From the IMG/VR virus record IMGVR_UViG_3300032030_000016: DNA of 64,000 nt; one strand, given 5' to 3'. This DNA comes from a virus (taxonomy: Duplodnaviria; Caudoviricetes). Positions 20,874-63,398 of this stretch are shown piece by piece (the first letter of the stretch is position 1; every line of letters begins with the position of its first letter). The translations under genes were made by a program, and so were the position numbers. The notes beneath the pieces were generated by a model. The model was not told the origin of the DNA, did no database searches, and saw only the letters and a program-made list of their open reading frames with translations.

Positions 20874-20927
20874 AAATCGCAAAAGTGCAGTACTTTTGCA
20901 CTTTTGCGATTTGTTTCTTTAATGAAA
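20874..20927 (+). promoter_or_regulatory. dyad motif copy 1 (candidate late promoter or recombinase site)
   Basis: AAATCGCAAAAGTGCA-GTACTTT-TGCACTTTTGCGATTT; TGCACTTTT-N15-AATGAAA. Confidence 0.6.
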
Positions 20928-20972
20928 GGAACCCCGGGTGGGGCCTACGGAGGAAAGGATGTATAATATTCA

Positions 20973-22172
20973 ATGATTGACAAAACTAAATATTATAACT
21001 TATATAATACAGGAATAACAAAAGAAGAATTGATTTTTGAAATGGGAAAAGATAAAGAAACCTATGGATATGATTGGGAATCATGTTCTGAAATATTAAA
21101 TCAAATTCTTGAAAAAAATGTAGACCCTGAAAGCTATAGAAAAAGATATGGGGAAATAAAAAGATTCTACGAAATTTTCCAAACAAAAATTCGTCAAGAA
21201 ACAAATGAAGATATTCTTAAAGAAATAGAACAAAGACAGGAAGAATTAAAAAAAGAAAAATATAAATTTTTTGATGCAAGAAATGAATATAATGCCCTTT
21301 TAAGAAAAAGAGCAAGACAGGAAGAAATTAATAATATTATTGTTGATTCAATAAATTCTCTTGATAAAAATAATTTTAAATTAAAAAAATCTATTCCTGC
21401 AACAAAAGAAGAAACGATGATTATCCCATTAAATGACTTACATTGTGGTTATAAAATTGAATCTATTTTGGGTAAATATGATGAAATAATTTTGAAAGAA
21501 AGAATTGAAAAATATTTATCTGAAATTATACAAATTCAAAATCAACATCATTGTGAAAGAGCTGTTGTGCTTGGTGGAGGAGATTTAATTAGTGGGAATA
21601 TTCATGCTGAAATTAAAAGAAGTAATAATCTAAACGTTATTGAACAGCTTATTACTGTGTCAGAATATATATCAAATTTTTTGGCAGAATTGTCTACTAT
21701 ATTTAAAACAGTTTCATTTTTGTCTGTATCTGGTAATCACTCTCGTATTGAAAAATATAAAGATTCTATTAAAGAAGAACGTCTTGATGATATTGTTGAA
21801 TGGTATTTAAAAGCAAATTTATCAAGATTTAACAATATTGAATTTGATAATTATATTAATGCTGATGCAACAATTAAAATTTTTGAAGTATATGAAAAAT
21901 CATATATATTGATTCATGGTGATTATGACGATAATAATAATGGGTTAATTTTACAGAAACTTGCAAATAGACCTATTACTGCGATATTTTCTGGGCATTA
22001 TCATCATAATGAAGTAGTTACGAAAAATGAAATCAAGTTTATTATGAGCGGTTCATTTATTGGAACTGATAACTTTACAATTCAAAAAAGAATTGTTGCT
22101 CATCCTGAACAGTTGATAACAATACTTGACAAAAACGGTGTTTGCTGTTATTATGATATTGACTTATTATGA
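20973..22172 (+). CDS. calcineurin-like metallophosphoesterase (YonJ-like)
   Basis: DLH, GD, GNH, HGD, GHYH motifs. Confidence 0.88.
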   Translation: MIDKTKYYNLYNTGITKEELIFEMGKDKETYGYDWESCSEILNQILEKNVDPESYRKRYGEIKRFYEIFQTKIRQETNEDILKEIEQRQEELKKEKYKFFDARNEYNALLRKRARQEEINNIIVDSINSLDKNNFKLKKSIPATKEETMIIPLNDLHCGYKIESILGKYDEIILKERIEKYLSEIIQIQNQHHCERAVVLGGGDLISGNIHAEIKRSNNLNVIEQLITVSEYISNFLAELSTIFKTVSFLSVSGNHSRIEKYKDSIKEERLDDIVEWYLKANLSRFNNIEFDNYINADATIKIFEVYEKSYILIHGDYDDNNNGLILQKLANRPITAIFSGHYHHNEVVTKNEIKFIMSGSFIGTDNFTIQKRIVAHPEQLITILDKNGVCCYYDIDLL

Positions 22173-22501
22173 GTACAAAAAATGAAGAAAAACAAATGCT
22201 CGTCAAACAAACAACAATAGATGTTGCAAAAAAAACATCTAAAAGATTCAATGGTATAAATACACCAGAAATTAAAATGATAATTGACGAGACTTTTAAT
22301 GTAATAAAAGAAATGATTCTTGATGGTGATTATGTTGTTATACAAGGATTAGGGGTTTTTTATACAGACTATCTTGATGAAGTTGATATAAAAGACCCAA
22401 GAAATAATGATATAATTCATTTTCAAAGAAGAAAAGTTCCACGCTTTTATTTTTCAAGAAATTTTAAAAAACAAATAAAAACATTTGATGAAAAGAAATA
22501 A
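22169..22501 (+). CDS. HU/IHF-like DNA-binding protein
   Basis: IQGLGVF...DPRN...VPRFYFSRNFK. Confidence 0.8.
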   Translation: MSTKNEEKQMLVKQTTIDVAKKTSKRFNGINTPEIKMIIDETFNVIKEMILDGDYVVIQGLGVFYTDYLDEVDIKDPRNNDIIHFQRRKVPRFYFSRNFKKQIKTFDEKK

Positions 22502-22505
22502 AACT

Positions 22506-22826
22506 ATGGGATTAATAGAAAAAAAGGAAAAAATAAAAAAAGAAAAATCTCAATCCATGAAATTGAATAAAAAGAAAATTATTCAATATATAGCAGATAA
22601 GACATATGATAATGAAGACAAAATTGGTTACTATTTTGATTCCATTTTTTATGGCATATCTTTAGCTTTACAAGAAGGGTATGAGGTTCCTATTGCTGAT
22701 TTTGGTAAGTTTTACACAAAAAAAAGACATGTAAACAATCAAAGTATTGGGTTTGTTGGTGATATAAAGAAGATATTTTTTAAACCAACTAAAAAATTAA
22801 AAAAACTTATAAATAATAATGAATAA
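22506..22826 (+). CDS. HU/IHF-like DNA-binding protein
   Basis: IADFGKF...IFFKPTKKLK. Confidence 0.78.
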   Translation: MGLIEKKEKIKKEKSQSMKLNKKKIIQYIADKTYDNEDKIGYYFDSIFYGISLALQEGYEVPIADFGKFYTKKRHVNNQSIGFVGDIKKIFFKPTKKLKKLINNNE

Positions 22827-22835
22827 AAAGAAAGA

Positions 22836-29517: not shown

Positions 29518-30266
29518 AAAAAGTTCTTATAACTGCTCCAGTTCATCAAAGTGTAAATATTTTTAAAGAATATTTATGGTCTTTAAATAGATTGATTATT
29601 CCAGAGGATGTTGAAATAAAAAAGTTCTTTTATTTACATAACTGTGAAGAATTAAAAGAATTTTTAAATGAAGATGAATATATGATATTAAATGATGATT
29701 CATCTTTTGAAGTTACAGAAAAAACACATATGTGGAAAAATGAAAATTTTTCTGCTGTTGCTAGAATGAGAACAATGGCTCTTGAAAAAGCAAAAGAAGA
29801 AAATTTTGATTATATATTTTCAATTGATTCAGATGTGTTATTAAATCCAATTACTTTACAATTGTTAATTAATGATAATAAAGACATAGTTGGGAACATA
29901 TACTGGACTGATTTTGACGGAAAAGGTTTATTATTACCAAACTGTTATGATTATGAAAATTGTCAATTTAATCAACAAATTGGTGGAGTTGATAGATTAA
30001 AAATAATGGGAGTTTATAACATAGGAGTTGTTGGAGCTTGCACGTTAATTGGGAAAAGAATTATACAAAATGATTATATAAATTATTTTCCTATAAAAAA
30101 TATAAGTTCAACAAAATGGGAAGATCAGGCATTTATTACAAGATCAAGATGTTTAATTCCTGATATAACAGTTTGTGTTGATACAAGATTTCCTGCTCGT
30201 CATTTATATAGGCAATCTGAATATGAATTATGGATGAAAGATAAGAAAGAATGTTATGGGTATTAA
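29514..30266 (+). CDS. glycosyltransferase (GT-A/GT2-like)
   Basis: FDYIFSIDSD, GACTLI, WEDQAF. Confidence 0.88.
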   Translation: MKKVLITAPVHQSVNIFKEYLWSLNRLIIPEDVEIKKFFYLHNCEELKEFLNEDEYMILNDDSSFEVTEKTHMWKNENFSAVARMRTMALEKAKEENFDYIFSIDSDVLLNPITLQLLINDNKDIVGNIYWTDFDGKGLLLPNCYDYENCQFNQQIGGVDRLKIMGVYNIGVVGACTLIGKRIIQNDYINYFPIKNISSTKWEDQAFITRSRCLIPDITVCVDTRFPARHLYRQSEYELWMKDKKECYGY

Positions 30267-43631: not shown

Positions 43632-43638
43632 TCTAACA

Positions 43639-44396: not shown

Positions 44397-44405
44397 AAGG
44401 ATTTT

Positions 44406-45616: not shown

Positions 45617-45617
45617 T

Positions 45618-45892: not shown

Positions 45893-45931
45893 AATTCTAA
45901 TAATATAAATTTAGCAAAATGTTTCAATATT

Positions 45932-45966
45932 AAAATAGCTCTATTAAAAAGCAATAGAGCTATTTT
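45932..45966 (+). terminator. intrinsic terminator after the DGR block
   Basis: AAAATAGCTCTATT-7nt-AATAGAGCTATTTT plus T tract. Confidence 0.7.
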
Positions 45967-45999
45967 TTATAAAAAAAGAAACAAAAAATAAAATACACA

Positions 46000-46074
46000 T
46001 TTTATTGAAAAAAATGATAAAAAAAATGCTTGAAGTACTGCACTTTTTTTATGTCATATTCTAATAAAAATGAT
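46000..46074 (+). promoter_or_regulatory. dyad motif copy 2
   Basis: 46036-46074 matches 63360-63398 at 36/39 positions; degenerate left arm. Confidence 0.6.
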
Positions 46075-46108
46075 ATAAAGAATAGAATATTACAGAAAGG
46101 AGGTTAAA

Positions 46109-47131
46109 TTGAAACAACCGTATAATAAGTTCTCGAATGAAGAATATAAACAAGTTCCAAAAGAAAATAAAGAAATAGCTGAAGATTTTTTATTATCTTT
46201 GAAAGGTGAAAAAACTGCACAAACAATTAGGGTATATACTAATAATTGTAAAATTATATTGATTATTATGTATAGGCTTTTTGGAGAGAAAAAAATAGTT
46301 CAACTTGTAAAAAAAGATTTAGTTAAAATGCGTGTTTATATGTTAGAAGATTTAAAATTATCAACAGCAAGAGTAAATATTATTTATTCAACATTGAGAA
46401 TGTTGATGTTATTTGCAGAAGAAGACCCTGAATACAGCAAAGATTTAGAAACACAATTTATTTCATGTGGAAGTAAAGTTAAAGGATTGCCAAAACAACC
46501 TGTAAGAGATGAATCAATGTTTTTTATGTCTTATGATTTAATTATAAAGATAAAAGATAAATTATTAGAAGATAATAATATACAAGGCGCACTTATTCAT
46601 ATGATGCTGTATGAATCGGCCTGTAGAAGAAATGAACTTATTCAAATAAAAAAAGACGGATTATTGAAAAGCAATTGGACAAATGAAGTCATTGGTAAGG
46701 GGAGGAAAAAGTTTAAACTTAGCTATCAGAATGATATAAAGCCATTAATAAAACAATGGTTAGATAGTAGAGATGATGATTGTCCTTATTTATTTATAAA
46801 AACAAAAAATGATAAAGCAGAACCAATGACAGCAGAAGATGTTTATTGTTTTGTATCAACAAAAATTAGAAATATTGCAACTGATATTGAAGGAAAAGAT
46901 AATGGATATACTTGCCATTCATATCGACATTCAAGATTAAACAATCTTCTTCACGGCACAGATTTAAGTTATATTGATAAAAATGGTAATCCTAAAAAAA
47001 TGGATATTAATGATTTAAGACTTTTAGCAAATCATAATGACATTTCAACTACATCTGGATATGTACAAACATCAACAACTGAAGTTCTCAATGAATTGTT
47101 TGGTTTTGATGAGGAAGAAGATAATGACTAA
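46109..47131 (+). CDS. tyrosine recombinase (YomM-like)
   Basis: ESACRRNEL (R), GKG (K), HSYRHS, LANH..ISTTSGY. Confidence 0.9.
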   Translation: MKQPYNKFSNEEYKQVPKENKEIAEDFLLSLKGEKTAQTIRVYTNNCKIILIIMYRLFGEKKIVQLVKKDLVKMRVYMLEDLKLSTARVNIIYSTLRMLMLFAEEDPEYSKDLETQFISCGSKVKGLPKQPVRDESMFFMSYDLIIKIKDKLLEDNNIQGALIHMMLYESACRRNELIQIKKDGLLKSNWTNEVIGKGRKKFKLSYQNDIKPLIKQWLDSRDDDCPYLFIKTKNDKAEPMTAEDVYCFVSTKIRNIATDIEGKDNGYTCHSYRHSRLNNLLHGTDLSYIDKNGNPKKMDINDLRLLANHNDISTTSGYVQTSTTEVLNELFGFDEEEDND

Positions 47132-47396: not shown

Positions 47397-47700
47397 CGTT
47401 TTACAAATTGTTTTGGATTATTTGTTGCCACTTGGCGTTGCGACACTTGTTGGTTATGTTATTGTAAAAATAAAACCATTCCTTGAAGATAAAACAACAA
47501 AAAATATTGTATCTATTCTTGTAGGAGCAGCTGAACAACTATACGAAGCTGGTCATGGTGAAGAAAAATTGAATTATGTTTTAAGTAAAGCAGAAGAATG
47601 GTTAAGACAATATCGTATTAATATTGATATGCAAAAACTTCGTGCGTTAATTGAAGCAGAGGTTTTAAAAATCAACATTGAGAAGAAATTAGTTGACTAA
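47380..47700 (+). CDS. holin, LL-H family
   Basis: N-terminal TM helix; VGAAEQLY...GEEKLNYV...IEAEV. Confidence 0.82.
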   Translation: MEIVSNVLQIVLDYLLPLGVATLVGYVIVKIKPFLEDKTTKNIVSILVGAAEQLYEAGHGEEKLNYVLSKAEEWLRQYRINIDMQKLRALIEAEVLKINIEKKLVD

Positions 47701-47712
47701 ATTATGATAGAT

Positions 47713-47750
47713 ATAAAAAATACCATAAAAATTTTTATGGTATTTTTTAT
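47713..47750. terminator. perfect 38-bp palindrome after the holin
   Basis: ATAAAAAATACCATAAAAATTTTTATGGTATTTTTTAT. Confidence 0.6.
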
Positions 47751-47773
47751 ATGGAAGAAAAGGAAAAAATATT

Positions 47774-48343
47774 ATGTTTAATGAAAAAATTAAATTAAAT
47801 TTAGATAATTTTGATAATACTGTAACAAAAGAAATAAATGGGCAAGAATTTAAATTCAATAAATATCTTGGACAAGATCTTTGTAAGACCGTTATAGATG
47901 AATGTATAGATAGATTTATTGAAATTAATAATGAGAATCATGATTTTGCATCATCTATAATGTCAGTTTTACAAACTATGAATATTTCTTTATGTTATTT
48001 AACAACAAATATTGATATTGATAATGTTTCTTATGAGGATTTATGCGCAATTGGAATTTTCAAAGCTATTGAAGAAACATTGATTAATTATAAAGAAATC
48101 AAAGATAATGTAATGTCTTGCATTGGTCTTATGTTTGACTATATTATTTTTAATGCAATTGAACAACTTCCTTCAAGTAAACAAATGACTGATAATTTGC
48201 AAGACATAAAAGAAATTTTTGAATCAAATCCAGAAAAAGCTAAAGAATATGCGGATATAGTTATAGCAAATCATCCAGAATTAAAAGGATTTGGTGAAAT
48301 ATTTGAAAATATTTTAAAAAATTTAAACAATAAAAAAGAATAA
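47774..48343 (+). CDS. hypothetical protein upstream of the tape measure (possible chaperone)
   Basis: Position. Confidence 0.55.
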   Translation: MFNEKIKLNLDNFDNTVTKEINGQEFKFNKYLGQDLCKTVIDECIDRFIEINNENHDFASSIMSVLQTMNISLCYLTTNIDIDNVSYEDLCAIGIFKAIEETLINYKEIKDNVMSCIGLMFDYIIFNAIEQLPSSKQMTDNLQDIKEIFESNPEKAKEYADIVIANHPELKGFGEIFENILKNLNNKKE

Positions 48344-48391
48344 AAAATTAAAAGGCTTTTTAGCCTTTAATGTATAACTTTGGAGGTTAAA

Positions 48392-51300: not shown

Positions 51301-54300
51301 GCTAAATGAAGGAAATTTTCTTGCTAATAATAATATCAATGAAGAGATTCGTTTACAAAATGAAAGATTGTACACTCAAAAAGGTATTTTAGCTAGTATT
51401 AATGAACAAAATGCAAAAAACGCTTTATTTGATTCTGGATTTTTAGGAATTAAAGATGCAACTCGCTCTCTCTTAGATTTAAATAAAAGTATATCTGATA
51501 TTATTTTTTCTGAATCAGGAAAAATAAAATATACTGATTTGATTGATTCTGAAGACATATCCCTTAATATAAAAAAAGATACACTACAAAGTATATTGGA
51601 TGCATTAAATGAGATACCTGTTGAAAGCAGAGGCTTAGATTGGTTAGGTATTTACGATACAGTATCTACTGATTTAAAAGCCATTAATAATGTCGTTGAT
51701 GATGTTAATAAATATGCTGAAGAAGCTGTATCAAGTATGCTTCAAGCGACTGGTAGAAATATAAAAACCATGTCGGATGAAGAACTAAAAAATTTAAAAA
51801 ATCAAATTGATGGAATAACAGACAGAAAAGACATTATCTTTTCTATTAGTGCCGACACAGAGCAAATTGAACAACTTGGCAACATGATTGATAATGAGTT
51901 ATCTGCTAGAGCGGAATCAGGATCAAATAATGTGGTAAACAGTATTGATGAAATTAATTTATCGCTTTCTGGTGCCATAGCAATAATGAGTGATTATGCT
52001 TCTCAGGCTGAAATATTATCTCAAGCTCAAGAAGATATAACTAATTCTGGAGTAATAAGTGCTGAAACATTAAAGAAAATAGCAGATGCAGGGCTTTTAG
52101 CTTATCTTACTATTGATGAAACAACAGGTTCACTCGTTGTAAATACACAAGCATTTCTTGATAATAATGCATCTTTGGAAGATAATACAATTGCTGAATA
52201 TGTAGCAACAGAACAAAAAAAATATGATGCGGACATTACAGATATTTTATCTGGAAATTTAGATACAGCTACATCATCTACAGATAAATTAACTTCAGCT
52301 ACTAAACAAAGCGGAGAAGAAGCTTTAAATGCAGCCTTAAAACATGCTGAAAATGCAGAAGCCCTAATAGCAGAAAAACGGGCAACAGGAGAACTTACTG
52401 ATGCACAAGTGGAGGCAATAAGAACAAGAGCTGCCACTTTCAAGTCAGAAGTTCAAACAGGTGTTGCACTTCTTAGAGGCTATTTTTCTAATGTTACACA
52501 AGCAAGAACGGCAACTTCAAGAGGTGCTTCTCATAGTTCAACACCATCTTCATCATCATCCTCTTCATCTCGTTCCAACAGTTCATCCACAAAAAGCAGT
52601 GAAGACCTTTGGAAAAAAGAATTTGAAAAACAACAAAAGATACTTAAGCATTATCTTGAAATGGAAGAAATTACCGAAAGACAGTATTATGCTTCCTTGA
52701 AGATACTTAATGACCAATTCTTCAAAGATAGAGTTGAATATGAAGAAGAATACTTAAAATATCAAGAAGAGATTTATAAAGGTGAGAAGAAATTTGTTCA
52801 AAGAATTTTTGAACGAACAGAAGCCATCCTTGAAAATCAACTTGAAGCAAGTATGATTACTTCAAAAGAGTATTTTGATAAACTTGAATCTTTATACACC
52901 ACATATTATACCAAACAAGAAGATTTAGAAGACAGATTATTTGAGCTTAAAAAACAAAGATACCAATATGAAAAACAGCAAATTCAAGATCAAATAAATC
53001 TTATGGAATCTCAAATGTCAAAACTTCTTCAAAGAGGCGAAGGATTATTAAAACATCGTCTTGCTATGGACGAAATAACTCAAACTCAATATCTTAACGC
53101 ACTTGAAGCACTTTATCTTTCATATTATGAAGATAGAGAAGAACTTGAAGAAAAGCTTTGGGAAGTTGAAGAAGGTAGATATGAAGAGCGAAAAAAAAAA
53201 CTCGATACGGTTATTTCTTATGCTATTAGTGTTATAGATGAAGAAATTGATAAACTTAAAAAAGAAAAAGAATCTATTGATGAAGTAAATGATTCAATAG
53301 AAGAACAAATAAAACTTCAAGAACTTCAAGATAACTTAGAAAAAGCAAGAAATAGAAAAATAAGAGTATATCGTAAAGGACAAGGCTTTGTTTACGAACA
53401 AGATACGCAAGCCATTAGTGAAGCTCAAACTGCATTAGATGAATACAAAAGAGAATTAAGCCATAAAAAAAAAATCTCAATGATTGATGAAGAAATTGAA
53501 AATCTTGAGAAATATAAGGAAAAATGGCAAAGTATTACAGATAATTATACAAAATCCCAAAATGAAATGGTTGTAAAAGGTATTTTGGGTGAAAATGCAA
53601 GACAAAAAATTCTCGAAGATGAAAAATCTTATGCTGAAAGTCTTGGTAATCAATATGTTGACACCAAAGATAAGGTATCTGATGCTCAAACAGGAATGAC
53701 TTCTGATGCGCAAGAAGGATTATCTGCAAGAGAAGAACTTTACACAACTGAAAAACTTATCGTTGATAGTATAGGTGACAAATATTGGGAGACCAGAGGA
53801 AAAGCTAAAGATGCAAATGAAGCAATCATAACTGATTTAGGTTTATTTATTGGTAGTGAAGATGATCCTAATTCTTTGAGTGGTAAAATCAAAATAATTA
53901 ATGATGAACTTGCTAAAGTTGGTAATGCTACTATCACTGTAGGAATAGATGGCAATAAATACATTCAAACAGTACAAAGTATAGAAGATTTAGGTTTAGT
54001 TATTGATGGTTTAAGAGGAAAAGAATATACTGAATTAACCATTGATATTAATGGCACAGAATATGAATTAAGTAAACAAGAAATTAAAGTTATTCATGAC
54101 GCTATTGATAATTTACAGGGTAAAACGTTAATTATTAAAATTGATGACCAAACTAAAGAATCTCTATCTGACATTCAACACACAGTTGATTCATTAGAAG
54201 GGAAAATCTTACAGATTGGTATTCAAAATAACATATCTGATGATGATATAACTGCAATTCAAGCTTTACTCAATAAACTAAAGAACAAAGTAATAGAAGT

Positions 54301-56428
54301 TAGTCTTCAAGATACTATTAGCGATACTGAATTAGATGATATTCAAAATGATATTAATGCATTACAAGGTAAATTAATTGAAGTTGGTATTGATACTGGA
54401 ACTTATAAAGATGATTTAAATACTATCCAAAATGCTATTGATGAAATGACAGGTAAAGCATTACCTATTGATATCAATGACCAAACTCAAACACCTTTAT
54501 CTGATATTCAGACTGCCCTTGACGCTTTAAAAGATGCCGATATAGAAGTAAAAACCAATGATATACAAACAATTCTTGATGATTTAGAGCAAACAAAAAA
54601 TGATATTGAAGAATTAAATGGTTCAAAAGCAGAACTTGAAATCGGGTGGAAAAAGGAGAATGGACAGACTCAATTAGAAATTCTCGAAAATTCTATGGCC
54701 GATTGGCAAACTACATATACAACTTATCTATCTGAAATCATTGATAAATTAAGAACATTAATTGAATCTCAAAAACAGGCTGGTTCTTATGATATTACCG
54801 GTTCTGGCAGTAGCGCAACATATCAATCTACTTATTCATATACACCACAAGTTGGAGATAAAGTCTCTGTCACCAAAGCATATCAAGATGCGAATCCTAA
54901 TTGGCCACTTTTAGGATTAGATCATTGGGTAGTTCAACCTGATTATGAAAACGAAGGATATTGGAAAATATCAAATCAAGGGCCAAATGGAGGAATAGAT
55001 TATTCCGTACCTACTTCTGCATTATATAAATCTGGCACTACAGATCCATCTTTATTGAGTTATGGTACAACTAATTCAACAGGTGGTGGTGGTAGTAGTG
55101 GGGGCACTTCATCAGGTGGTGGAGGTACTTCATCTGGTAGTGGTGGTTCTAATAGTAGTACATCGAGCGGAAGCAGTGGAAATACATCATCTGGTAGTGA
55201 TACATCATCAACATCCGAGGTGGTATCGTTAAATGGTATCAAAGTGGGAGATACTGTTTATGCTGGTGAAATATATTATACAAGCTTTGGTGGTAAATAT
55301 ACAAGACATTTTAGACTTTATAATAATTCAGATGAAAATTATAAAGTCACTGATATCGATAAAGAAAATAAAAAATTTTACCTAGAAGGATTAGGATGGC
55401 GGTCTTGGGAACTTGTTTCTACATCAAAAACATTAAATACTTTTCCCGCTTATAATCAGTCACCTAATTATGAACCAGAAATTGTCATGTCTGATTCACT
55501 AACTTCTTCAGATTTTTCGTCTGGAGAAAAAGTAAAAGTGATAAATAAGTCTATTCCTTATTATGATGACAACTATGTTTGGACTGTTGCAGATATAGCT
55601 AATTCAGATGCATCTGATGGAAGCTATAAAAAAGGAATGGTTAGATTAAAAAATGAAGATGGAACTATAGTAACAGCTGTTTGGCCAAGTAATTTGCAAA
55701 AAGTCGATGGCACCTCTACTAATCAACAACAATCTTCTTCATCTGATAATAATCAACAACAACAAGACAATACTCCCGCCAATGGCGCTTCAAGAAACAA
55801 TAATGGACAATGGGAGTATTATAATGCCGAAAAAGGTGAATGGTGGCCATATGATTACATAACAACAGGGGGGACTAGTTACTTTGAAAATCCTGTAACA
55901 CATGAAAGAATAGAAGATGAATCATCATCAGGAGGCAGTTCATCTAGTGGAGGCAGTTCATCTGGTGGAGGCAGTTCTGGATATTATGATGGTAGTTATT
56001 CTGACTATGTTCAACAAAATGGTACATACGATCCTAGCACTGGTGGATATTATATGGATGGTATATATTTTGGTCCGGGGAATTTTGCTTCTGGTACTCT
56101 CGCCACAAAATCTAAAACATTTATGGTAAATGAAAATGGTATTGAAGCAATGGTTACACCAGATGGTACAGTTATTAGTGCTCCAACACCCGGATATGGT
56201 GTAATTAAAAATGAATACACAGAACGACTTACTGATTTTGCTGCTGATCCATTACAGTTTCTTAATAAAGAATTTTCTGGTTATGTTGGTAATTATAAAA
56301 ATAATCAAAATAATAATCAAGTTATTAATATCAATGGCGATTTAAACCTTCCTAATGTTACCAATGGTGAATCTTTTGTTGATTCCATTAAAACTCTTGC
56401 TTTACAATATACTACGAGGAGAAAATGA
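48392..56428 (+). CDS. tail tape measure protein (TP901-type core)
   Basis: 2678 aa; ELTEFSKVT, LNEVSNKY, AGKNQ; coiled coils; C-terminal FASGT...VNENG.E. Confidence 0.92.
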   Translation: MANYNINVKAKVDVQQIKSSIRQSLAETTIRVAPKFDVFADDNNIAEFRKAVAKILNAEPISITLAEPTNDNISKILGEINKKFIITPTLKFDTNKGSEFKTQLDDIKQAIDEFGKSSKAKISFDVDSESHNQLLKIIDNINQKQNIEVGFSYNEQQVQKLSDLFHDLEGGIKELDKGAIEISFAPISDTHLVPIKTKIDDYFKNNPITLTIAETTGGIDLSSFSETWKQLSAEKEKIYQESNIKIKEQEENINKELQINYEKYLAEKRKAQEKENQESQQRQKEASENTKVILHDEIEEHKNVFNEKINNLKEYLNYLKEENQNLKDNIDIQEEADKQYIALSEEKKQQIKDISKAEHDYGISVSYLTELYKTQSYTFEEYSKSIKETMQKATEEGLVSPELIQKTSLLLDKLYKETQDKQEKANQKAQQERKKEEERVAKHLENIRNKTLKEQEQTQKQQEQAWNKETQDLQEKYNKQLISTEEYIEKMEILVKQGFDNGYDKANHYSNSLEQVKQKQDKAGQSADNLRNKVNNLGLKFDNVFNSLMRYFGVTKIFDAVQSSFSKMIQEVRDLDVELTEFSKVTDLSVNETNKFVDSCYELGDAVSRTGTEVIQATTLFKKMGYEIDESMQFAKDALIWTNVADGIVTVENASTMLISTMKAFEEQGISSTHIIDALNEVSNKYSTSSSALSDNLSTVSATLAVSGTSFEQTIGLLTAGIEIMPDKASKVANGLKTISQRIRQIDGDTADKLDEFLGSKGISRYDELTGQLKGTYDLLEEIAGQWNKLSINEKQYLGETMAGKNQITVMNALMMNFKTAIEATNTAMNSSGSASKELQRVLNSIQGHLQKFKTTFEKLSYKLIDTSAIKEFIDLGTNVLRVLGEVSISIKPILKAVEAIAFIINIPFKIIDASNKKLEETKETLISLKQEEKNNLDDTIKKYEELQNLYNSENLSQKEKTEILREIIKLNEGNFLANNNINEEIRLQNERLYTQKGILASINEQNAKNALFDSGFLGIKDATRSLLDLNKSISDIIFSESGKIKYTDLIDSEDISLNIKKDTLQSILDALNEIPVESRGLDWLGIYDTVSTDLKAINNVVDDVNKYAEEAVSSMLQATGRNIKTMSDEELKNLKNQIDGITDRKDIIFSISADTEQIEQLGNMIDNELSARAESGSNNVVNSIDEINLSLSGAIAIMSDYASQAEILSQAQEDITNSGVISAETLKKIADAGLLAYLTIDETTGSLVVNTQAFLDNNASLEDNTIAEYVATEQKKYDADITDILSGNLDTATSSTDKLTSATKQSGEEALNAALKHAENAEALIAEKRATGELTDAQVEAIRTRAATFKSEVQTGVALLRGYFSNVTQARTATSRGASHSSTPSSSSSSSSRSNSSSTKSSEDLWKKEFEKQQKILKHYLEMEEITERQYYASLKILNDQFFKDRVEYEEEYLKYQEEIYKGEKKFVQRIFERTEAILENQLEASMITSKEYFDKLESLYTTYYTKQEDLEDRLFELKKQRYQYEKQQIQDQINLMESQMSKLLQRGEGLLKHRLAMDEITQTQYLNALEALYLSYYEDREELEEKLWEVEEGRYEERKKKLDTVISYAISVIDEEIDKLKKEKESIDEVNDSIEEQIKLQELQDNLEKARNRKIRVYRKGQGFVYEQDTQAISEAQTALDEYKRELSHKKKISMIDEEIENLEKYKEKWQSITDNYTKSQNEMVVKGILGENARQKILEDEKSYAESLGNQYVDTKDKVSDAQTGMTSDAQEGLSAREELYTTEKLIVDSIGDKYWETRGKAKDANEAIITDLGLFIGSEDDPNSLSGKIKIINDELAKVGNATITVGIDGNKYIQTVQSIEDLGLVIDGLRGKEYTELTIDINGTEYELSKQEIKVIHDAIDNLQGKTLIIKIDDQTKESLSDIQHTVDSLEGKILQIGIQNNISDDDITAIQALLNKLKNKVIEVSLQDTISDTELDDIQNDINALQGKLIEVGIDTGTYKDDLNTIQNAIDEMTGKALPIDINDQTQTPLSDIQTALDALKDADIEVKTNDIQTILDDLEQTKNDIEELNGSKAELEIGWKKENGQTQLEILENSMADWQTTYTTYLSEIIDKLRTLIESQKQAGSYDITGSGSSATYQSTYSYTPQVGDKVSVTKAYQDANPNWPLLGLDHWVVQPDYENEGYWKISNQGPNGGIDYSVPTSALYKSGTTDPSLLSYGTTNSTGGGGSSGGTSSGGGGTSSGSGGSNSSTSSGSSGNTSSGSDTSSTSEVVSLNGIKVGDTVYAGEIYYTSFGGKYTRHFRLYNNSDENYKVTDIDKENKKFYLEGLGWRSWELVSTSKTLNTFPAYNQSPNYEPEIVMSDSLTSSDFSSGEKVKVINKSIPYYDDNYVWTVADIANSDASDGSYKKGMVRLKNEDGTIVTAVWPSNLQKVDGTSTNQQQSSSSDNNQQQQDNTPANGASRNNNGQWEYYNAEKGEWWPYDYITTGGTSYFENPVTHERIEDESSSGGSSSSGGSSSGGGSSGYYDGSYSDYVQQNGTYDPSTGGYYMDGIYFGPGNFASGTLATKSKTFMVNENGIEAMVTPDGTVISAPTPGYGVIKNEYTERLTDFAADPLQFLNKEFSGYVGNYKNNQNNNQVININGDLNLPNVTNGESFVDSIKTLALQYTTRRK
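55931..55978 (+). repeat. 18-bp Ser/Gly tandem repeat within the TMP gene
   Basis: GGAGGCAGTTCATCTRGT x2 plus a partial copy. Confidence 0.8.
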
Positions 56429-56973
56429 ATAATCCTGCACAACAAATAATTGAAGCCATACAAATACTTGTTGACAATGCTATGAAAAAAACCACAAATA
56501 TTAATGGAGGTATTATTACCTCCATTAATAATGATGGCAGATATTCTGTTTTAGTAAAAGGTAAAACAAATATTCTAAAAGCATATCCAAGAACAAGATC
56601 ACTTTCTGTGGGCGACACAGTACAAGTTGTTACTCCGCAAGGTCAAAATAGTCAAGCTTTCATTCTTCCATGTTCATTTAATGTTATAAAAGAAAATTTA
56701 AATATAGTTGATGAAACTATAAATTCAACATCAACTCCACAAAACGATATTTATGGAATTGGTCTTTGCATAAATGATGTAAATAATGAACAAGTTGGAT
56801 ATATTAGAGCGGTTTCTTTATCAACAGGATATGATGGCATAGAAATTTTAACAACTAAAAATATAAATAATACAAATTATGAAAATAAGATAGGTCTATT
56901 CATAGATAAATCTGGAAATAATTTAATTGAAATTAGTGATCCTAGTGCTTGGAGAACAGCATTGGGAATTTAA
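56425..56973 (+). CDS. tail-tip protein (OB-fold-like N-terminus)
   Basis: GIITSI...LSVGDTVQV..PQG. Confidence 0.6.
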   Translation: MNNPAQQIIEAIQILVDNAMKKTTNINGGIITSINNDGRYSVLVKGKTNILKAYPRTRSLSVGDTVQVVTPQGQNSQAFILPCSFNVIKENLNIVDETINSTSTPQNDIYGIGLCINDVNNEQVGYIRAVSLSTGYDGIEILTTKNINNTNYENKIGLFIDKSGNNLIEISDPSAWRTALGI

Positions 56974-56999
56974 ATAAAAAAGAAAGGGGGATAAGATAG

Positions 57000-58106
57000 A
57001 TGGCTTTATCTACACCTTCACTATATGCTATTCCAGCATTTGATGCAACGTTAGATTATACTGTTGCATTTTCCGTTTCTGGTGGTGATCAAGTTGTGGC
57101 AAACAGGTTGATAGTATATAGGAATAATGATATTACAACACCCATTTATAATAATGTAGTGGAATCATATAATTTTAATCATACTATTCCAGCAAATACA
57201 TTAACAAATGGGATTTACTATGTTGCATACGTAAAAACATATGGAGTTAATGATGATATAACAGATGAAAGTGCTGGAAGTGCATTAAGTTCTGGTGCAC
57301 CATTTTATTGTTATACCACTCCTATTCTTTTATGGGATAATGAACCAGAGGGTTCTGTAATAGATACATCCTCTTTCGTTTTTCATTTTTCATATAGTCA
57401 AATTGAAAATGAAAGATTATATAGCTATATTATTAATTTATATGACCAAACTCAAACACTAATCAGTAGTAGTGGCACACAATATATTGCTTCTGCAACT
57501 GTAAATATTAGGTATGAAGTCACTGGTTTATTAAATTCAAATGATTATTATATAGAAGCGAATGGCGTTACTGTAAACAACACACAAATAACAACAGGTA
57601 AAAAACATTTTTCTGTTAATTATTATGAACCATATTCAAAACAAGGCTTTCTTGCGACAAATGACCCGTGCAATGGTTGGATTACACTGACAAATAATGT
57701 TGTTATTATAGATTCAAGTTCTTATCCTGATCCACCGAATTATGTTTATGGAAATACAGCCGTTGATATAACTGAAACGGGAAGTTATGTTAGATGGACT
57801 GGATTTACTCAATCAGATGATTTTTGCATAAGAATCTGGGGATATAATTTTACTTCTAATGAAAGAGTATTTTTCTATACGCAAGATAATATTGCATATA
57901 ATATGTCTCTGATAAGAAGAGATGGCTATGATTACGGGTCAACTGTGTTACAAAATTATTATGAATTACAAGTACAAGTAAACGATAGTCAACCATTATT
58001 TATTTATAGTAATTATATCAATCAACCAGACGAGGGCGACCAAGTATTTATTTGCATAAAAAGAATCAGCAATATGTATAGTTTATATATAGAAAATTTG
58101 GGGTAA
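57000..58106 (+). CDS. beta-rich tail protein (FN3-like repeats)
   Basis: TLTNGIYYVAYV, GLLNSNDYYIE. Confidence 0.65.
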   Translation: MALSTPSLYAIPAFDATLDYTVAFSVSGGDQVVANRLIVYRNNDITTPIYNNVVESYNFNHTIPANTLTNGIYYVAYVKTYGVNDDITDESAGSALSSGAPFYCYTTPILLWDNEPEGSVIDTSSFVFHFSYSQIENERLYSYIINLYDQTQTLISSSGTQYIASATVNIRYEVTGLLNSNDYYIEANGVTVNNTQITTGKKHFSVNYYEPYSKQGFLATNDPCNGWITLTNNVVIIDSSSYPDPPNYVYGNTAVDITETGSYVRWTGFTQSDDFCIRIWGYNFTSNERVFFYTQDNIAYNMSLIRRDGYDYGSTVLQNYYELQVQVNDSQPLFIYSNYINQPDEGDQVFICIKRISNMYSLYIENLG

Positions 58107-58109
58107 AAT

Positions 58110-59018
58110 ATGTTTAATATATTAGGATTTAATTTTTTATTTGATGCATATGCTCTTGATTCTCGTCCTACAAATGTTGAACCATTGACAACTTCCGTTG
58201 TTTCAAATGGTATTTTTAATGAAGTACAAATATCTTCTCAAGTAGATGAAACAACTATTGATACTACAATTCCTACCGCTTTTGGCGCATATGACATTTT
58301 ATTATGTAACTTTAATGGAAACATTGAAGGTGGTAGTTTGGACTATTATGATTTTGATTTAATTAAAATAAAAAGAAGAATATATGGAACATTCAATTGG
58401 ATAACATTATTTGAAATTTCTGTTTCTGAAATCTCTGACATGTATTTTACAAAATATGATTGGTTTGCAAAAACAAATACAACATATGAATATGCTTTTG
58501 TTCCTGTAACTGGTGGAGTTGAAGGTAACTACTCAATTGTTTCTGTAGATAGTGAATTTTATAAAATATATTTATGTGATTCCACAACAATCTATGCTCT
58601 TGATGCAGGAATTGTTTTTGGCAATATTTCAAAATCAAATAAAACAAATATTTTTGAACCTCTAATGGGTAAATATCCTATTGTTGTTTCTAATGCTGAA
58701 CTCGATTATAAGAGTGGAACATTAAGCGGAACAGTTATCACACCTTCTGAAGATACGACAAAAGTATGGAATTTACAAGAGAACATTAAATTACAAAACA
58801 ATATTTTAAATTTTTTAGTAAACAAAAAAGCAAAAATTTATAAAGACTGGATGGGAAATTCATATTTAATTCTCATTGTAGAAGACGTGAATCTTGTACC
58901 AAACAACAATATTGGTGGCAGATTAGCCGATATTGCTTTTAGTTTTGTTGAAATAGGTGATTCTGAAAATCAAGATGACCTTTATGAAAATGGTCTTATT
59001 GATGTTCAAATAACATAA
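58110..59018 (+). CDS. distal tail/baseplate-like protein
   Basis: TYEYAFVPV; KYPIVVSN; IAFSFVEIGD. Confidence 0.6.
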   Translation: MFNILGFNFLFDAYALDSRPTNVEPLTTSVVSNGIFNEVQISSQVDETTIDTTIPTAFGAYDILLCNFNGNIEGGSLDYYDFDLIKIKRRIYGTFNWITLFEISVSEISDMYFTKYDWFAKTNTTYEYAFVPVTGGVEGNYSIVSVDSEFYKIYLCDSTTIYALDAGIVFGNISKSNKTNIFEPLMGKYPIVVSNAELDYKSGTLSGTVITPSEDTTKVWNLQENIKLQNNILNFLVNKKAKIYKDWMGNSYLILIVEDVNLVPNNNIGGRLADIAFSFVEIGDSENQDDLYENGLIDVQIT

Positions 59019-59028
59019 AGGATATAAG

Positions 59029-60537
59029 ATGGCAATAATTTCACAAGACCAATACAATGTTGTCAAACAAAGATATAGAAAAATATTAATAAAAATTAAT
59101 TTACTGAATTTTAATTTTCAAGTTGTTGATTCTATTGAGGGGAATTTAACAACTGGTAGTATTACGATAAATGCCAATAGTGATATTAGACGTTCGTGTA
59201 ATATCACTATGGTTGTAAAAAATCATACATTTCAAATTAGTGCTGGTGGTCAAATTTGGCTTGATAAGTATATCCAGATTTATTATGGAATAGTAAATAA
59301 TGTAAATAATGAAGTCGTTTGGACAAATATGGGAATATTTTTAATTAATAACCCTAATCATGTTTATGATTCTGTCAACAACACAATAACATTTCAAGGC
59401 GTTGACTTGATGGCTAAACTTACTGGCATTAGAAATGGATATTTTGAATGGTTAAATGGTGTTATTCCTCAACAAACAGATGAAGAAAATGGAACATTGA
59501 GAGATATTTTTATTGATTTGTTAGAACAAGCAGGTTTTACAAAATATAATATTGAAAATTTGGTTTATATAAATGGAGAAGTTATAAAACTTCCATATGA
59601 TGTGGAAATTTCAGCGACAAGTACATTATATGACGTTTTTAATGAAATTAGAAATAATGTCCTACCAAATTATGAAATGTTTTTTGATATAGATGGTGTT
59701 TTCAATTTAAAGAAAATTTATAACTCGGCATCAGACCCAATAATTATTGATAATGATGTTTTTAATAAAACTGTCATGAATATTACGAATGACATTAATT
59801 TTGAAAATGTTAAAAATGCTATTGAAATCTGGGGACAAACTTTAGAGCCTGTATATGGTAATCCAGTGTGCACTATTGACAGCGATTCTCAGCTTGGAGA
59901 TGTTTGGTTTTGTGAAATAACAGAAATAAAAGCATTTGAAACTATACCTGAAAACAGTTATATAGGTTTTGGTATTCGTTCAAGTGTTTATACACAAACA
60001 TCTTATCTGCATATTGATGGTTTTCAACCCTATCAAATAGTTGATGAAAATAATGATCCCGTTTATTTTGATCAACCAGAAACTGGAAGTATTGATTATT
60101 ATATAGTTGTTTTTGAATCAGAAGAAAATGGGGGGCATTTTAAATTAATTGGTAATCAACAAGTCTATTGTTACATAGAAGATGATATTCCAGAATCACC
60201 ATTTTATGTAAATGGTAGCATTGGCAAAATTTTATTGCCCTTATCTGGTGGAGAATATGAAATTATACAAACAAAACAACAAGCATATGAAAGAGCTTTA
60301 TATGAACTCTATAATTATGCACGAATGAATGATAGTATAAGATTAACTAGTGTAATAATACCTTGGGCTGATGTTAATCAAAAAATAGAATACATTAATG
60401 AAGATGCTGAAATATCTGGAATATTTATTATAAAAAACATATCAATGAATCTGGATGTTGGTGGTGTAATGACTTTAGAATGTATGAGATGGTATGATTA
60501 TGAACCAGACAAATATCCATGGGAACACGATTCTTAA
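59029..60537 (+). CDS. baseplate hub/tail-tip protein
   Basis: SDIRRSCNI; FFDIDGVF; IPWADVNQKI. Confidence 0.65.
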   Translation: MAIISQDQYNVVKQRYRKILIKINLLNFNFQVVDSIEGNLTTGSITINANSDIRRSCNITMVVKNHTFQISAGGQIWLDKYIQIYYGIVNNVNNEVVWTNMGIFLINNPNHVYDSVNNTITFQGVDLMAKLTGIRNGYFEWLNGVIPQQTDEENGTLRDIFIDLLEQAGFTKYNIENLVYINGEVIKLPYDVEISATSTLYDVFNEIRNNVLPNYEMFFDIDGVFNLKKIYNSASDPIIIDNDVFNKTVMNITNDINFENVKNAIEIWGQTLEPVYGNPVCTIDSDSQLGDVWFCEITEIKAFETIPENSYIGFGIRSSVYTQTSYLHIDGFQPYQIVDENNDPVYFDQPETGSIDYYIVVFESEENGGHFKLIGNQQVYCYIEDDIPESPFYVNGSIGKILLPLSGGEYEIIQTKQQAYERALYELYNYARMNDSIRLTSVIIPWADVNQKIEYINEDAEISGIFIIKNISMNLDVGGVMTLECMRWYDYEPDKYPWEHDS

Positions 60538-60554
60538 AAAAAGAAAGGAAAAAA

Positions 60555-61295
60555 ATGAGTGCAACATATCCACAATATCCGCATAGCAATTTTCCAGATG
60601 ATTTAGATTCTTGGGAAGATTTTCTTGATGTAGAAGCATCTGATGCAACTCTACTTACTCAATATCAGCAATATATTCTCGCTGGCGATATGGAAAATGC
60701 TTATAATATCTATCAACAAATTAGTAATGCTGATAGAAAATTTATTGGAGCATTGGTAATGAATCAATTTGCTGATGCGATCATGTCCCTAGAACAGTTT
60801 TATAGCAATAGCGGATTTATAAATTATGTAACAGAAAAACAAGCCGAATGGCAAGTAATTATAGACAAATTTTCATATATCGGTATTTATAATGATACAA
60901 CCCAATATTATAAAAACAATATTGTTTTATATAATGCAAATGGTCAAAATTATTTATATATTAATACCTACAATGGAACAACGCCTGTTGGAACAATTCC
61001 AACTCAACCTAGTTATTGGAGAATATTGACGATTCAAGGAAATCAAGGAGAAGCAGGAAGTTCAACCACTTTTTACTTCTCTTGGGATTCTGCGACAAAC
61101 TATAAAACAAATAATGTTGTTGCAGTTGGATCGTCTTTATATGTAGCTTTACAGGATAATGTTAATATATCGCCTACAGCTAATTCTACTTATTGGCAGA
61201 GAATTTTTACAACACCACAAAAACATTATCCAATACAAGAAACACAACCACAAGATGCTTTGGTTGGAGATTTATGGTTTAGGATTGTGACATGA
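60555..61295 (+). CDS. tail fibre-like protein with CBM5/12-like repeats
   Basis: Y...TQYYKNNIVLY...YW and W...TNYKTNNVV...YW repeats. Confidence 0.65.
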   Translation: MSATYPQYPHSNFPDDLDSWEDFLDVEASDATLLTQYQQYILAGDMENAYNIYQQISNADRKFIGALVMNQFADAIMSLEQFYSNSGFINYVTEKQAEWQVIIDKFSYIGIYNDTTQYYKNNIVLYNANGQNYLYINTYNGTTPVGTIPTQPSYWRILTIQGNQGEAGSSTTFYFSWDSATNYKTNNVVAVGSSLYVALQDNVNISPTANSTYWQRIFTTPQKHYPIQETQPQDALVGDLWFRIVT

Positions 61296-62017
61296 CAGAT
61301 TTAAGAAGATTACAAGATGTTCAGCTCGGAGACGAGAATTTAATAGAGAATTATAGGAACTATTTTAATGATAGACAAATTGATAATGCTCATAATTTAA
61401 TAAACACAAATAAATATAAATCTTATGTTCTTCAAGCTGAATGGATGAATAATATAAAAACAAAGATAGAACAAGTTGAAGAATATAGTGATATTGAAAT
61501 AACACAAAATTTAAATAATAAAAATACAGAGTTTCAAACAAATATTGATAGATTATTATATATTCAAGAATATAATAATGTAACACAATATTATGAAAAC
61601 AATCTTGTTTCATATAATAATAACATTTATTTTTGTATAAATGATTCTTTAGGAAATCTACCAACTAATACAAACTATTGGTTAAAAATAGGATTAATAG
61701 GCGAAAAGGGTCAATATGGATTAGGAATCAATTATAGAGGATTCTGGAACTCAACTACGTCATACAATAAATATGATTTAGTTTCTTATGAAAATAATTT
61801 ATATGTTGCAACCAAAAACAATGTTGGAACAACACCATCTTTTGGTAAATATCTTAATGATTCTTTATATTTAAACAGTAATTTATATTTAGGACTTGAG
61901 GATAAAACAGCAACATGGTTCTTATTGACAAGAATAGAAATTCAACCAATCTATGTTTTCCCCGCCGACTATAAACAACTTCAATTAGATTCTATCTTTT
62001 TTGCAGAGGTTCAATGA
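61292..62017 (+). CDS. paralogous tail fibre-like protein with CBM-like repeats
   Basis: Same architecture as the preceding gene. Confidence 0.65.
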   Translation: MTDLRRLQDVQLGDENLIENYRNYFNDRQIDNAHNLINTNKYKSYVLQAEWMNNIKTKIEQVEEYSDIEITQNLNNKNTEFQTNIDRLLYIQEYNNVTQYYENNLVSYNNNIYFCINDSLGNLPTNTNYWLKIGLIGEKGQYGLGINYRGFWNSTTSYNKYDLVSYENNLYVATKNNVGTTPSFGKYLNDSLYLNSNLYLGLEDKTATWFLLTRIEIQPIYVFPADYKQLQLDSIFFAEVQ

Positions 62018-62412
62018 CAAACTATAATATAGAAATAAGACAATTTAATGGTACCGATTATGATGTTCTTTATCCAGTAACAACAATCGGAAATATAATT
62101 GATTTAGAAAATCAATTAAATAATAGACCTATACTGACAACAACACAAGTTACTTTAACCGCTAGCGGATGGTCTGGTAATGGTTCAACAACACCATATA
62201 CACAAGATATCACAATATCTGGTGTTACAACAAGTAGTAATATAATTATCAATATTGTCCCATTATCTACAAGTTACACAGGTATTGCAAATGAAGTAAA
62301 CAATTTTCAATACATAAATTTCACAACTCCACTAAATGGCAAAGTGAGATTTACTTGTGTTGGTAGTAAGCCAACAATTGCATTAACTGTAAAAGTTTTA
62401 TGTTTTCAATAA
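62014..62412 (+). CDS. small tail-associated beta protein
   Basis: YDVLYPVT; TLTASGW...YTQDITISGVT. Confidence 0.6.
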   Translation: MTNYNIEIRQFNGTDYDVLYPVTTIGNIIDLENQLNNRPILTTTQVTLTASGWSGNGSTTPYTQDITISGVTTSSNIIINIVPLSTSYTGIANEVNNFQYINFTTPLNGKVRFTCVGSKPTIALTVKVLCFQ

Positions 62413-62429
62413 CATAAAGGAGGAATAAT

Positions 62430-63320
62430 ATGAAGTTAGCATTAATACGACCAGTAAAAAAAAGTTATGTTGTTACTTTTTCGTATAGTGAGCATGTTGC
62501 TTATGCTATTCAAAATAATCTTGGTAACACTTATCGTGGTGGTATAGATTATGTTGGATATAATGCTGATTCTAATGGAAACATACCTCTGTATTGTGCA
62601 GATAAAGGCATTGTAAACAAAATTGTTTATGATGAAAAAGGATATGGGAATTGTATAAAAGTTAAACATCAATGGGGTTATTCTATATATGCACATATGA
62701 AATATCCCCCAACTTTAGCTATTGGAACGACAGTGGATGAATTTACAATTCTTGGTTATCAGGGTCATAGTGGAAATTGTAGAGATGCAAATGGGAATAA
62801 TACAGAAGCCGCCTCACATCTCCATTTTGAAATCAGGGATTTGAATAATAATACATTTGATCCAACTCCTTACATCATAGATAGAGAAGATTATATATTA
62901 TCTCAACAAAATTTAAATTTTAATGACAACTCTATTCATGTTGGTTCTGTTGTTTGCATAAAGGATGGTGCAAAATCATACACTGGTCAATCTTTATGGA
63001 ATGGTGTATATGGTCAACCATATACCGTTGACGAGATTTATAATAACAGAGTATTATTAGATAGAGCTGGAATTTGTACACCTGTAAATATTGATGATAT
63101 TTATCTTTACGAAGCACCTAATGAACAGCATAATAATAATGGTAATAACAATCAAGTAAATAATAATGATGAATCAAATTATTACACTGTTCAAGCTGGA
63201 GATAGTTTATGGTCTATTTCGCAAAAATTTAATACAACAATTGACAATATTATGAAACTGAATCCAGAAATTACAAATGCTAATCTTATTTATGTTGGAC
63301 AAACTCTAAAAATAAAATGA
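62430..63320 (+). CDS. endolysin: M23 peptidase, SH3-like and LysM domains
   Basis: GYGN, YAHM, HLHFEIR; YTVQAGDSLWSISQKF...LIYVGQTLKI. Confidence 0.88.
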   Translation: MKLALIRPVKKSYVVTFSYSEHVAYAIQNNLGNTYRGGIDYVGYNADSNGNIPLYCADKGIVNKIVYDEKGYGNCIKVKHQWGYSIYAHMKYPPTLAIGTTVDEFTILGYQGHSGNCRDANGNNTEAASHLHFEIRDLNNNTFDPTPYIIDREDYILSQQNLNFNDNSIHVGSVVCIKDGAKSYTGQSLWNGVYGQPYTVDEIYNNRVLLDRAGICTPVNIDDIYLYEAPNEQHNNNGNNNQVNNNDESNYYTVQAGDSLWSISQKFNTTIDNIMKLNPEITNANLIYVGQTLKIK

Positions 63321-63323
63321 TAC

Positions 63324-63398
63324 TTTTATTTAAAATATTGCATTTTAAAAGTGCAGTACTACTGCACTTTTTTTATGTAATATTACAATAAAAATGAT
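63324..63398 (+). promoter_or_regulatory. dyad motif copy 3
   Basis: AAAAGTGCA-GTACTAC-TGCACTTTT-N15-AATAAAA; imperfect long inverted arms. Confidence 0.6.

Follow-up and report, generated by a model that had tools for sequence, protein, structure and literature searches.

What does a short dyad do when a phage genome carries it three times, each time at the edge of a transcription unit? The case analyzed here is a 64,000-nucleotide (nt) stretch of IMG/VR virus record IMGVR_UViG_3300032030_000016 (Duplodnaviria; Caudoviricetes), called the window below, which is the minus strand of positions 54841–118840 in a 144,664-bp virus record that is rated complete. A reading of these letters alone, the original prediction, had placed the pattern TGCACTTTT-N15-AATRAAA at 20897, 46039, and 63363 and offered two roles for it, either a promoter for the YonO-like RNA polymerase of the phage or a set of core sites for a tyrosine recombinase. 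Our analysis points elsewhere. The three dyads are probably the stems of paralogous factor-independent terminators that bound the late unit of an SPbeta-like phage. The dyad is ordinary, and the new lead is a candidate YonO-type promoter beside copy 1.

Occurrence and structure of the three hairpins

All sequences and positions of the three occurrences are as predicted, with three exact matches to the full pattern in the window against 0.00 expected from 100 shuffles. The genome-wide scan that had been proposed as a check confines the 14-mer AAAAGTGCAGTACT to three sites in the 144,664-bp genome, 20881 (plus strand), 46034 (minus strand), and 63347 (plus strand), which confirms that copy 2 is inverted relative to copies 1 and 3. 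The reversed 14-mer, used as a control, has no match in the genome. Copies 2 and 3 differ at 3 of 39 nt, the 36/39 agreement already described, and their similarity reaches 64 of 88 positions when 45987–46074 is set against 63311–63398. The predicted dyad symmetry can be read at all three sites, as two inverted 9-nt arms around a 7-nt spacer at copies 1 and 3; it is incomplete at copy 2, where the second arm is degenerate (6/9). The hairpins and the terminators next to them are as follows.

20874..20912, plus strand: copy 1, a 17-bp hairpin with a T-rich tail, 6 nt past the stop codon of the gene for a polymerase partner protein (terminator scan and folding)
45935..45963, plus strand: intact terminator hairpin followed by T6, ending a unit of a diversity-generating retroelement (DGR) and small open reading frames (ORFs), 60 nt upstream of copy 2
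46014..46057, plus strand: copy 2, a decayed long hairpin (-9.4 kcal/mol) followed by T7 (folding)
63335..63383, plus strand: copy 3, an inner 11-bp stem (63347–63371) and an outer 9-bp stem followed by T7 (terminator scan and folding)
63405..63436, plus strand: decayed remnant of the ancestral post-lysin terminator (-7.4 kcal/mol, without a T-tract), which is intact in relatives

Copies 1 and 3 form stable stem-loops that contain G-C pairs, a T-tract stands directly 3' of every copy (T7 at copies 2 and 3), and copies 1 and 3 are co-directional with a unit and lie behind its last gene. Copy 1 folds at -24.5 kcal/mol (z about -7 against shuffles), and the tail directly 3' of its stem is TTTGTTTCTTT. 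Copy 3 folds at -21.5 kcal/mol (z about -7) and starts 27 nt past the lysin stop codon. Copy 2 is weak (-9.4 kcal/mol) because its left arm has decayed. We read copy 1 as the putative intrinsic terminator T1 of the polymerase operon and copy 3 as the putative terminator T3 after the lysin.

Fate of the hairpins in relatives

Each copy site was compared with relatives from independent metagenome assemblies, using the neighboring proteins as anchors (loci labelled L005, L012, L024, etc.). The alignment places copy 3 within a 56-nt insertion that is specific to the window lineage. A GTGCAG hairpin follows the lysin only in the window and in L019/L020, where the lysin is 89% identical; L015–L018 and L024–L026 have at this place an unrelated hairpin that is strong (-18 to -20 kcal/mol) and followed by a T-tract. 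The decayed remnant at 63405–63436, immediately downstream of the insertion, shows that the GTGCAG hairpin was inserted upstream of the old terminator and took over. Since relatives have an unrelated hairpin and the old one in the window has decayed, a terminator has been kept after the lysin while its sequence was free to change. Decay of the old terminator only after the insertion implies that the new copy 3 functions.

Copy 2 lies ~120 nt past the last small ORF, with the other terminator in between. A hairpin of the same family occurs at this position in all lineages and is better paired in the relatives. Between copy 3 of the window and the hairpin at the copy-2 position of L024, the changes are G-C to A-U together with C-G to U·G; between the outer stems of L012 and L026 they are A-U to G-C together with G-C to G·U. 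Because only plus-strand RNA tolerates G·U pairs, these changes fit selection on a plus-strand RNA helix. In the relatives from X2 and X4, at ~2% divergence, none of the best-supported differences listed falls within 45952–46134, which is a weak hint. Structure is thus conserved over sequence at copy 2, through compensatory changes, and at copy 3, through an unrelated hairpin.

Copy 1 behaves differently. The lower 13 bp of its stem and the next 12 nt are unchanged in six lineages, whose partner proteins are 76–87% identical where measured, and since this lower stem never varies, copy 1 gives no support for conservation of structure only. The upper stem and loop, which are the part common to copies 2 and 3, are variable and mismatched in five of the six lineages, making the shared upper stem the least conserved part of the site. 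Within L024 and within L026, moreover, the copy-2 and copy-3 hairpins are unrelated to each other, so they do not form a genome-wide recognition word. Because the upper stem varies, copy 3 is lineage-specific, and copies 2 and 3 differ within relatives, the dyad, judged from its sequence, is not a protein recognition code. The fixed N15 distance between dyad and AATRAAA box, a central part of the original prediction, also fails in relatives, in which the hairpin-to-box spacing at copy 2 is 13 nt longer; it is a coincidence of the window lineage.

In the arrangement that we propose, in which termination itself, the identity of the stopped polymerase, and promoter activity are what we infer, T1 would stop host sigma-A transcription of the polymerase operon and, by stopping the host RNA polymerase, would shield the late genes from its read-through. 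The hairpin at copy 2 (T2) would be internal, standing before the recombinase-holin unit, and would be decayed and dispensable here, with an intact terminator 60 nt upstream. T3 would close the late block past the lysin. The shared 14-mer would stem from common descent and from copying of the hairpin cassette, copy 3 having arisen by the 56-nt insertion and replaced the older terminator. The late promoter would be a separate element, an invariant TTTAATG block that adjoins T1 only, and late transcription would start a few bases past this block, at the foot of a leader hairpin. Such an arrangement would show a phage that insulates its late genes with hairpin terminators, and a terminator cassette that was copied and displaced an older one.

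Like intrinsic terminators of Bacillota, the hairpins here consist of a stem-loop and an immediate T-tract past a stop codon at a unit end, keep structure over sequence at the post-lysin and pre-recombinase sites, and have flanking A- and T-tracts that give them a two-way look. Unlike them, the three hairpins have a 14-nt core in common, and the lower stem of copy 1 is invariant in both arms although the flanking proteins are 76–87% identical. A second comparison is with the promoter-stem-loop (PeSL) cassettes that Arbiol, Comeau, and Krisch reportedly described in T4-type phages in 2010. Both are short repeated intergenic units in which a terminator hairpin is joined to regulatory sequence downstream of it, and both can be copied to other intergenic places. 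The window differs in having three copies only, a downstream 31 nt without a shown promoter, and no visible link to gene shuffling.

A candidate late promoter beside copy 1

The polymerase operon and the elements that follow it are listed below.

17308-17280, minus strand: mirror-image sigma-A promoter, divergent partner of 17322..17350 (promoter scan)
17322..17350, plus strand: perfect sigma-A promoter (TTGACA, 17 nt, TG-TATAAT) that drives the polymerase operon (promoter scan)
17339..20116, plus strand: YonO-like single-subunit two-barrel RNA polymerase (Pfam RdRP PF05183, 3e-16)
20113..20868, plus strand: gene for a 251-amino-acid (aa) partner protein, which overlaps the stop codon of the polymerase gene and closes the early polymerase operon
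20900..20924, plus strand: 25-nt invariant block made up of the T1 right arm, T-tract, and TTTAATG box; candidate late promoter or initiator
20927..20946, plus strand: GC-rich leader hairpin just past the box (-6.6 to -14.5 kcal/mol across lineages)

In the 660-nt alignment of six lineages, which includes both flanking genes, no invariant run is longer than the 25-nt block. This block has no second copy in the genome at up to 6 mismatches, save for the mirror arm of its own hairpin. The sequence of the leader hairpin differs in each lineage (window, L005, L007, L029, L032, and L033), with a stem of 5–9 bp and a loop of 4–6 nt kept throughout, and it is likely to form the 5' stem-loop of the late mRNA. 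As a separate observation, RNAalifold proposes pairing between the invariant TTTCTTT and the ribosome-binding region GGAGGAAAGG in the leader of the first late gene.

We tentatively suggest that block 20900–20924, with its T-tract, TTTAATG, and initiating purines at the foot of the leader hairpin, may be the promoter of the YonO-like polymerase, perhaps acting with the co-translated 251-aa partner, and homologous to a TTATGG box behind the polymerase operon in Bacillus phage BUCT082 and a TTTATGA box at the mapped start in SPbeta. When a box matrix was built without the window's own site, mostly from close relatives, position 20917 ranked first genome-wide. Copies 2 and 3 scored at background against the same matrix, beyond rank 1000, and the candidate promoter concerns copy 1 only. 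BUCT082 carries the closest annotated polymerase (33% identity by tblastn; SPbeta yonO, 25% identity, E 2e-15) and the same overlapping partner-gene layout. Its box matches the L032 form of the box at 15 of 18 positions and lies behind an unrelated hairpin, 16 nt further away, so box and hairpin are separable.

A related signal, WTAATS followed after 2–7 nt by WAAGGR, occurs within 300 nt 3' of the gene at 21 of 68 YonO-homologue loci (prophage loci, L040–L109) and is 11-fold enriched there (1.09 versus 0.10 per kb elsewhere). The 3' half of this signal resembles the initiating region of the T7 promoter (TATAGGGAGA). It usually stands directly past a hairpin and T-tract, and the Bacillus group has a second copy ~27 nt further on. 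A de novo 9-mer search downstream of the 68 YonO homologues returned only A/T-rich words at control level. The AAAGTGC/GCACTTT arms found after SPbeta yonO were considered as a counterpart of the window dyad and set aside as coincidence (counts of 2 versus 2 and 0 versus 1 after YonO homologues).

In SPbeta, the late genes are reported as one operon with a single YonO-dependent start between the polymerase unit and the yonK/yonJ genes, published as genome position 2225998, between two primers (PMC5467207). A TAAT..ARGG-type signal follows SPbeta yonO and occurs twice more in the yonN-yonK spacer, each time behind a hairpin; one copy falls between the two published primer-extension primers, and the SPbeta box considered beside the mapped start reads TTTATGAGGG. 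A blastn comparison of the yonN-yonK spacer with relatives gave kilobase-scale conservation and no discrete promoter block. In BUCT082 (L111 6470–6960), the leader downstream of the HU gene hardly differs from the SPbeta leader and has both of its TCATTTATGA boxes. Analogy with SPbeta, whose opening point is upstream of yonP-yonO, makes a pac site at copy 1 unlikely. The evidence for the box from outside the phage group is suggestive rather than strong.

The YonO-type promoter was left undefined in the 2017 description (PMC5467207), and a limited literature search found no definition. Compared with P_YonO of SPbeta, the candidate has the same place in the gene order, one site per genome, and a structured leader RNA next to it, and a TTWATGR-type box lies within the interval of the mapped SPbeta start. 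The two differ in that sequence similarity is weak, the polymerases are 25% identical, and the window's operon includes the partner protein. If the assignment is true, phage RNA polymerases of the single-subunit two-barrel type would gain their first promoter consensus, and the invariant base of T1 might belong to a combined stop-and-start switch. The phage group provides a short, invariant, single-copy promoter candidate at a defined position for YonO-type polymerases, and a signal related to it is enriched behind the YonO homologues of many Bacillota prophages.

Points against, and alternative explanations

Several results weigh against paralogous terminators with a separate promoter. The lower T1 stem is invariant in both arms, without even A-U to G·U changes, which is more than a plain terminator needs, and the adjacent leader hairpin is free to vary across those lineages, a hint of sequence-specific recognition at the base of T1. 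Copy 2 stands behind another terminator in two lineages and would be redundant if it solely terminated. The 31 nt common to the regions downstream of copies 2 and 3 are without explanation, as is an inverted repeat, AATAAAA-N6-TTTTATT, that precedes both copies in every lineage. Termination by YonO of SPbeta was outside the tests of Forrest et al. 2017 (PMC5467207). The copy-1 box resembles SPbeta only weakly; with a matrix limited to BUCT082 and SPbeta, it takes rank 298 among 289,298 positions. Metatranscriptome runs X19 and X20 gave contigs of 160–500 nt over 45400–64000, at low depth and on both strands, which are uninformative on transcript ends. The window holds three copies of the inverted repeat where 0.05 are expected.

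29615-29634: third copy of AATAAAA-N6-TTTTATT
45987..46006, plus strand: AATAAAA-N6-TTTTATT before copy 2, conserved in relatives
63311..63330, plus strand: AATAAAA-N6-TTTTATT spanning the lysin stop codon, present in all lineages

The promoter role first proposed for all three copies would make each hairpin and its AATRAAA box a bipartite, possibly extruded-hairpin, promoter for the YonO-like polymerase, with three starts, for the late operon, the recombinase-tail unit, and the post-lysin gene. We consider this unlikely. All three copies do precede plus-strand units without a conserved sigma-A promoter, and the original statement that they have no sigma-A consensus needs correction at copy 2, where a weak site not conserved in relatives is present:

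46036..46074, plus strand: 39-nt stretch common with copy 3, which holds the weak sigma-A-like -35 and reaches the TG of the extended -10
46051-46079, plus strand: weak sigma-A-like promoter before the recombinase (ATGTCA, 17 nt, TG-n-TATAAA)

The -35 of this site is inside the repeat shared with copy 3, and the -10 is just outside. What survives of the three-promoter proposal is copy 1, where the AATG box falls inside the 25-nt invariant, genome-unique block at the late operon start, next to a lower stem that is invariant in sequence in both arms. Several TAAT..ARGG copies of SPbeta, the one between the published primers included, likewise stand behind hairpins. At copies 2 and 3 the proposal fails on the same box matrix, for which copy 1 is the top match of the genome and the other two rank beyond 1000th, and the invariant 25-mer has no second copy. 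Copy 3 is missing from most relatives, which nevertheless keep the downstream gene. The distance from hairpin to box varies, by 13 nt among relatives at copy 2 and between BUCT082 and the group at copy 1. At copy 1, it is the shared upper stem that varies, with mismatches in relatives, and the dyad itself is not what is conserved. Hairpin promoters of the N4 type have a 5–7-bp stem, a 3-nt loop of fixed sequence, and a T7-like virion polymerase. This model was rejected here, as the stems are 11–17 bp, the loop and upper stem vary in relatives, and the polymerase is of the two-barrel kind.

Alternatively, the hairpins could act after synthesis, as RNase III-type processing sites or 3' stabilizers that cut the late transcript in the manner of the T7 intergenic hairpins. 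The hairpins are long and imperfect with internal loops (an outer and an inner stem at copies 2 and 3), their structure is kept by compensatory changes, and copy 2 is inside the late block behind another terminator; the single late operon reported for SPbeta (PMC5467207) is in line with such processing. A T-tract directly 3' of each hairpin, at a unit end, is the signature of a terminator, however, and processing overlaps with termination rather than excluding it. As the explanation of the dyads, we regard processing as improbable.

It is very unlikely that the hairpin cassette is a mobile or recombination-prone palindrome, similar to miniature inverted-repeat transposable elements (MITE), repetitive extragenic palindromes (REP), or T4-type promoter-stem-loops, that is a by-product of spreading and has no local role. 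Copy 3 is a clean 56-nt insertion in one lineage, and copies 2 and 3 have 92% identity across their common 39 nt despite unrelated flanks. Yet the 144.6-kb genome holds only three copies, IMG/VR contigs outside the phage have none, copies 1 and 2 are stable in position across lineages, all are confined to unit boundaries, and the old post-lysin terminator decayed only after the insertion.

The second original proposal, that the neighboring tyrosine recombinase uses the dyads as core sites and the head or tail module can thereby be inverted (or, as also considered here, excised), is hardly credible. The enzyme in question is:

46109..47131, plus strand: tyrosine recombinase with all catalytic residues, at a position in front of the holin and tape-measure genes that is conserved

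Its R, K, HxxR, H, and Y residues align with an archaeal Xer structure, and the recombinase looks catalytically intact. The 9-bp arms and 7-bp spacer also fit a lox/dif-type geometry. Exchange by tyrosine recombinases requires matching overlap regions. The three spacers are unequal (GTACTTT, GTACTAC, and GTACTTC), which argues against exchange between the dyads, and the second arm of copy 2 matches at only 6 of 9 positions. In L024 and L026, the recombinase and the copy-2 hairpin are retained, but the hairpin after the lysin is unrelated. Changes of the G·U type in the stems point to RNA and not to duplex DNA. Assemblies L009–L014 and L024–L026 and the X2 and X4 DNA-run contigs that bridge copy 2 are all colinear; inverted or excised forms were absent from the assemblies across the sites and from the X2/X4 contigs over copy 2, although contigs can miss rare forms. 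Joints found in the runs over 45400–64000 were discarded, as their sides are 20–32 nt and of low complexity and none joins two dyads. AATAAAA-N6-TTTTATT was also rejected as a recombinase site, its spacers differing between the two copies.

Like loxP/Cre, dif/Xer, and FRT/Flp, the dyads combine inverted arms with an asymmetric spacer of 6–8 bp beside a tyrosine recombinase gene. Unlike those systems, the window has non-identical spacers, one degenerate arm, and sites that are not co-conserved with the recombinase, and no recombinant products were seen. A further precedent is MrpR of SPbeta, a recombinase-fold protein without catalytic residues that binds a repeated intergenic element, the 15-bp SPBRE, at its 9 binding peaks (PMC10516654). 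The window likewise pairs a repeated intergenic element of an SPbeta-type phage with a protein of the tyrosine-recombinase fold; it differs in its recombinase, which seems to have an intact catalytic site, and in its repeat, a hairpin located where units end.

Genome context and neighboring genes

The window has a GC content of ~28%, and its phage was found repeatedly in gut metagenomes of sheep, goat, and cattle; the host would be a member of the Bacillota from the sheep or cattle gut. Scans of IMG/VR with the copy-2/3 box, the recombinase, and the partner-protein alignment recovered one 6.7-kb relative only, and an Rfam scan of the window had no matches. Gene content is SPbeta-like. The window encodes the YonO-type polymerase, and relatives encode the YonJ_N, YonG_N, YomU/V/W/X, and YomN families together with two HU genes. 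Minus-strand genes extend to 17401, the plus-strand structural and lysis block runs unbroken from 20973 to 63320, and the module from 64007 has obvious sigma-A promoters in its intergenic regions. The 251-aa partner is 73–87% identical across 14 relatives, and in distant relatives the recombinase adjoins a YomN-family gene.

Left of copy 2, three tightly packed plus-strand small ORFs (62, 38, and 52 aa) occupy 45428–45892. The 38-aa ORF looks XkdX-like, and a distant relative has a Pfam XkdX match at the corresponding place. An 82-aa minus-strand ORF at 45632–45880 is spurious because these packed plus-strand ORFs reach 45892, and the region is not divergent; a 119-aa minus-strand ORF that overlaps the small ORFs is an artefact. 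The DGR spans 41595–45437. Its reverse transcriptase (Pfam RVT_1) lies at 44406–45437, and relatives keep a reverse transcriptase at this place. The template repeat (44126–44246) is 86% identical to the variable repeat (43498–43618), which lies at the 3' end of a 678-aa gene at 41595–43631. Where the window has its extra terminator, some relatives (L012 3368–4342, L014 617–1591, and L026 341–1315) encode another tyrosine recombinase, of 324 aa, immediately upstream of the conserved enzyme.

The polymerase gene is a single gene of 911–925 aa in the window and L033. It was called in pieces with intervening ORFs in some relatives (L029 1–3004 and L032 1–3020) and in Clostridium phage c-st (L112 2525–6458), for example as a 544-aa piece followed by ORFs of 109 and 235 aa, which suggests inserted elements or splits.

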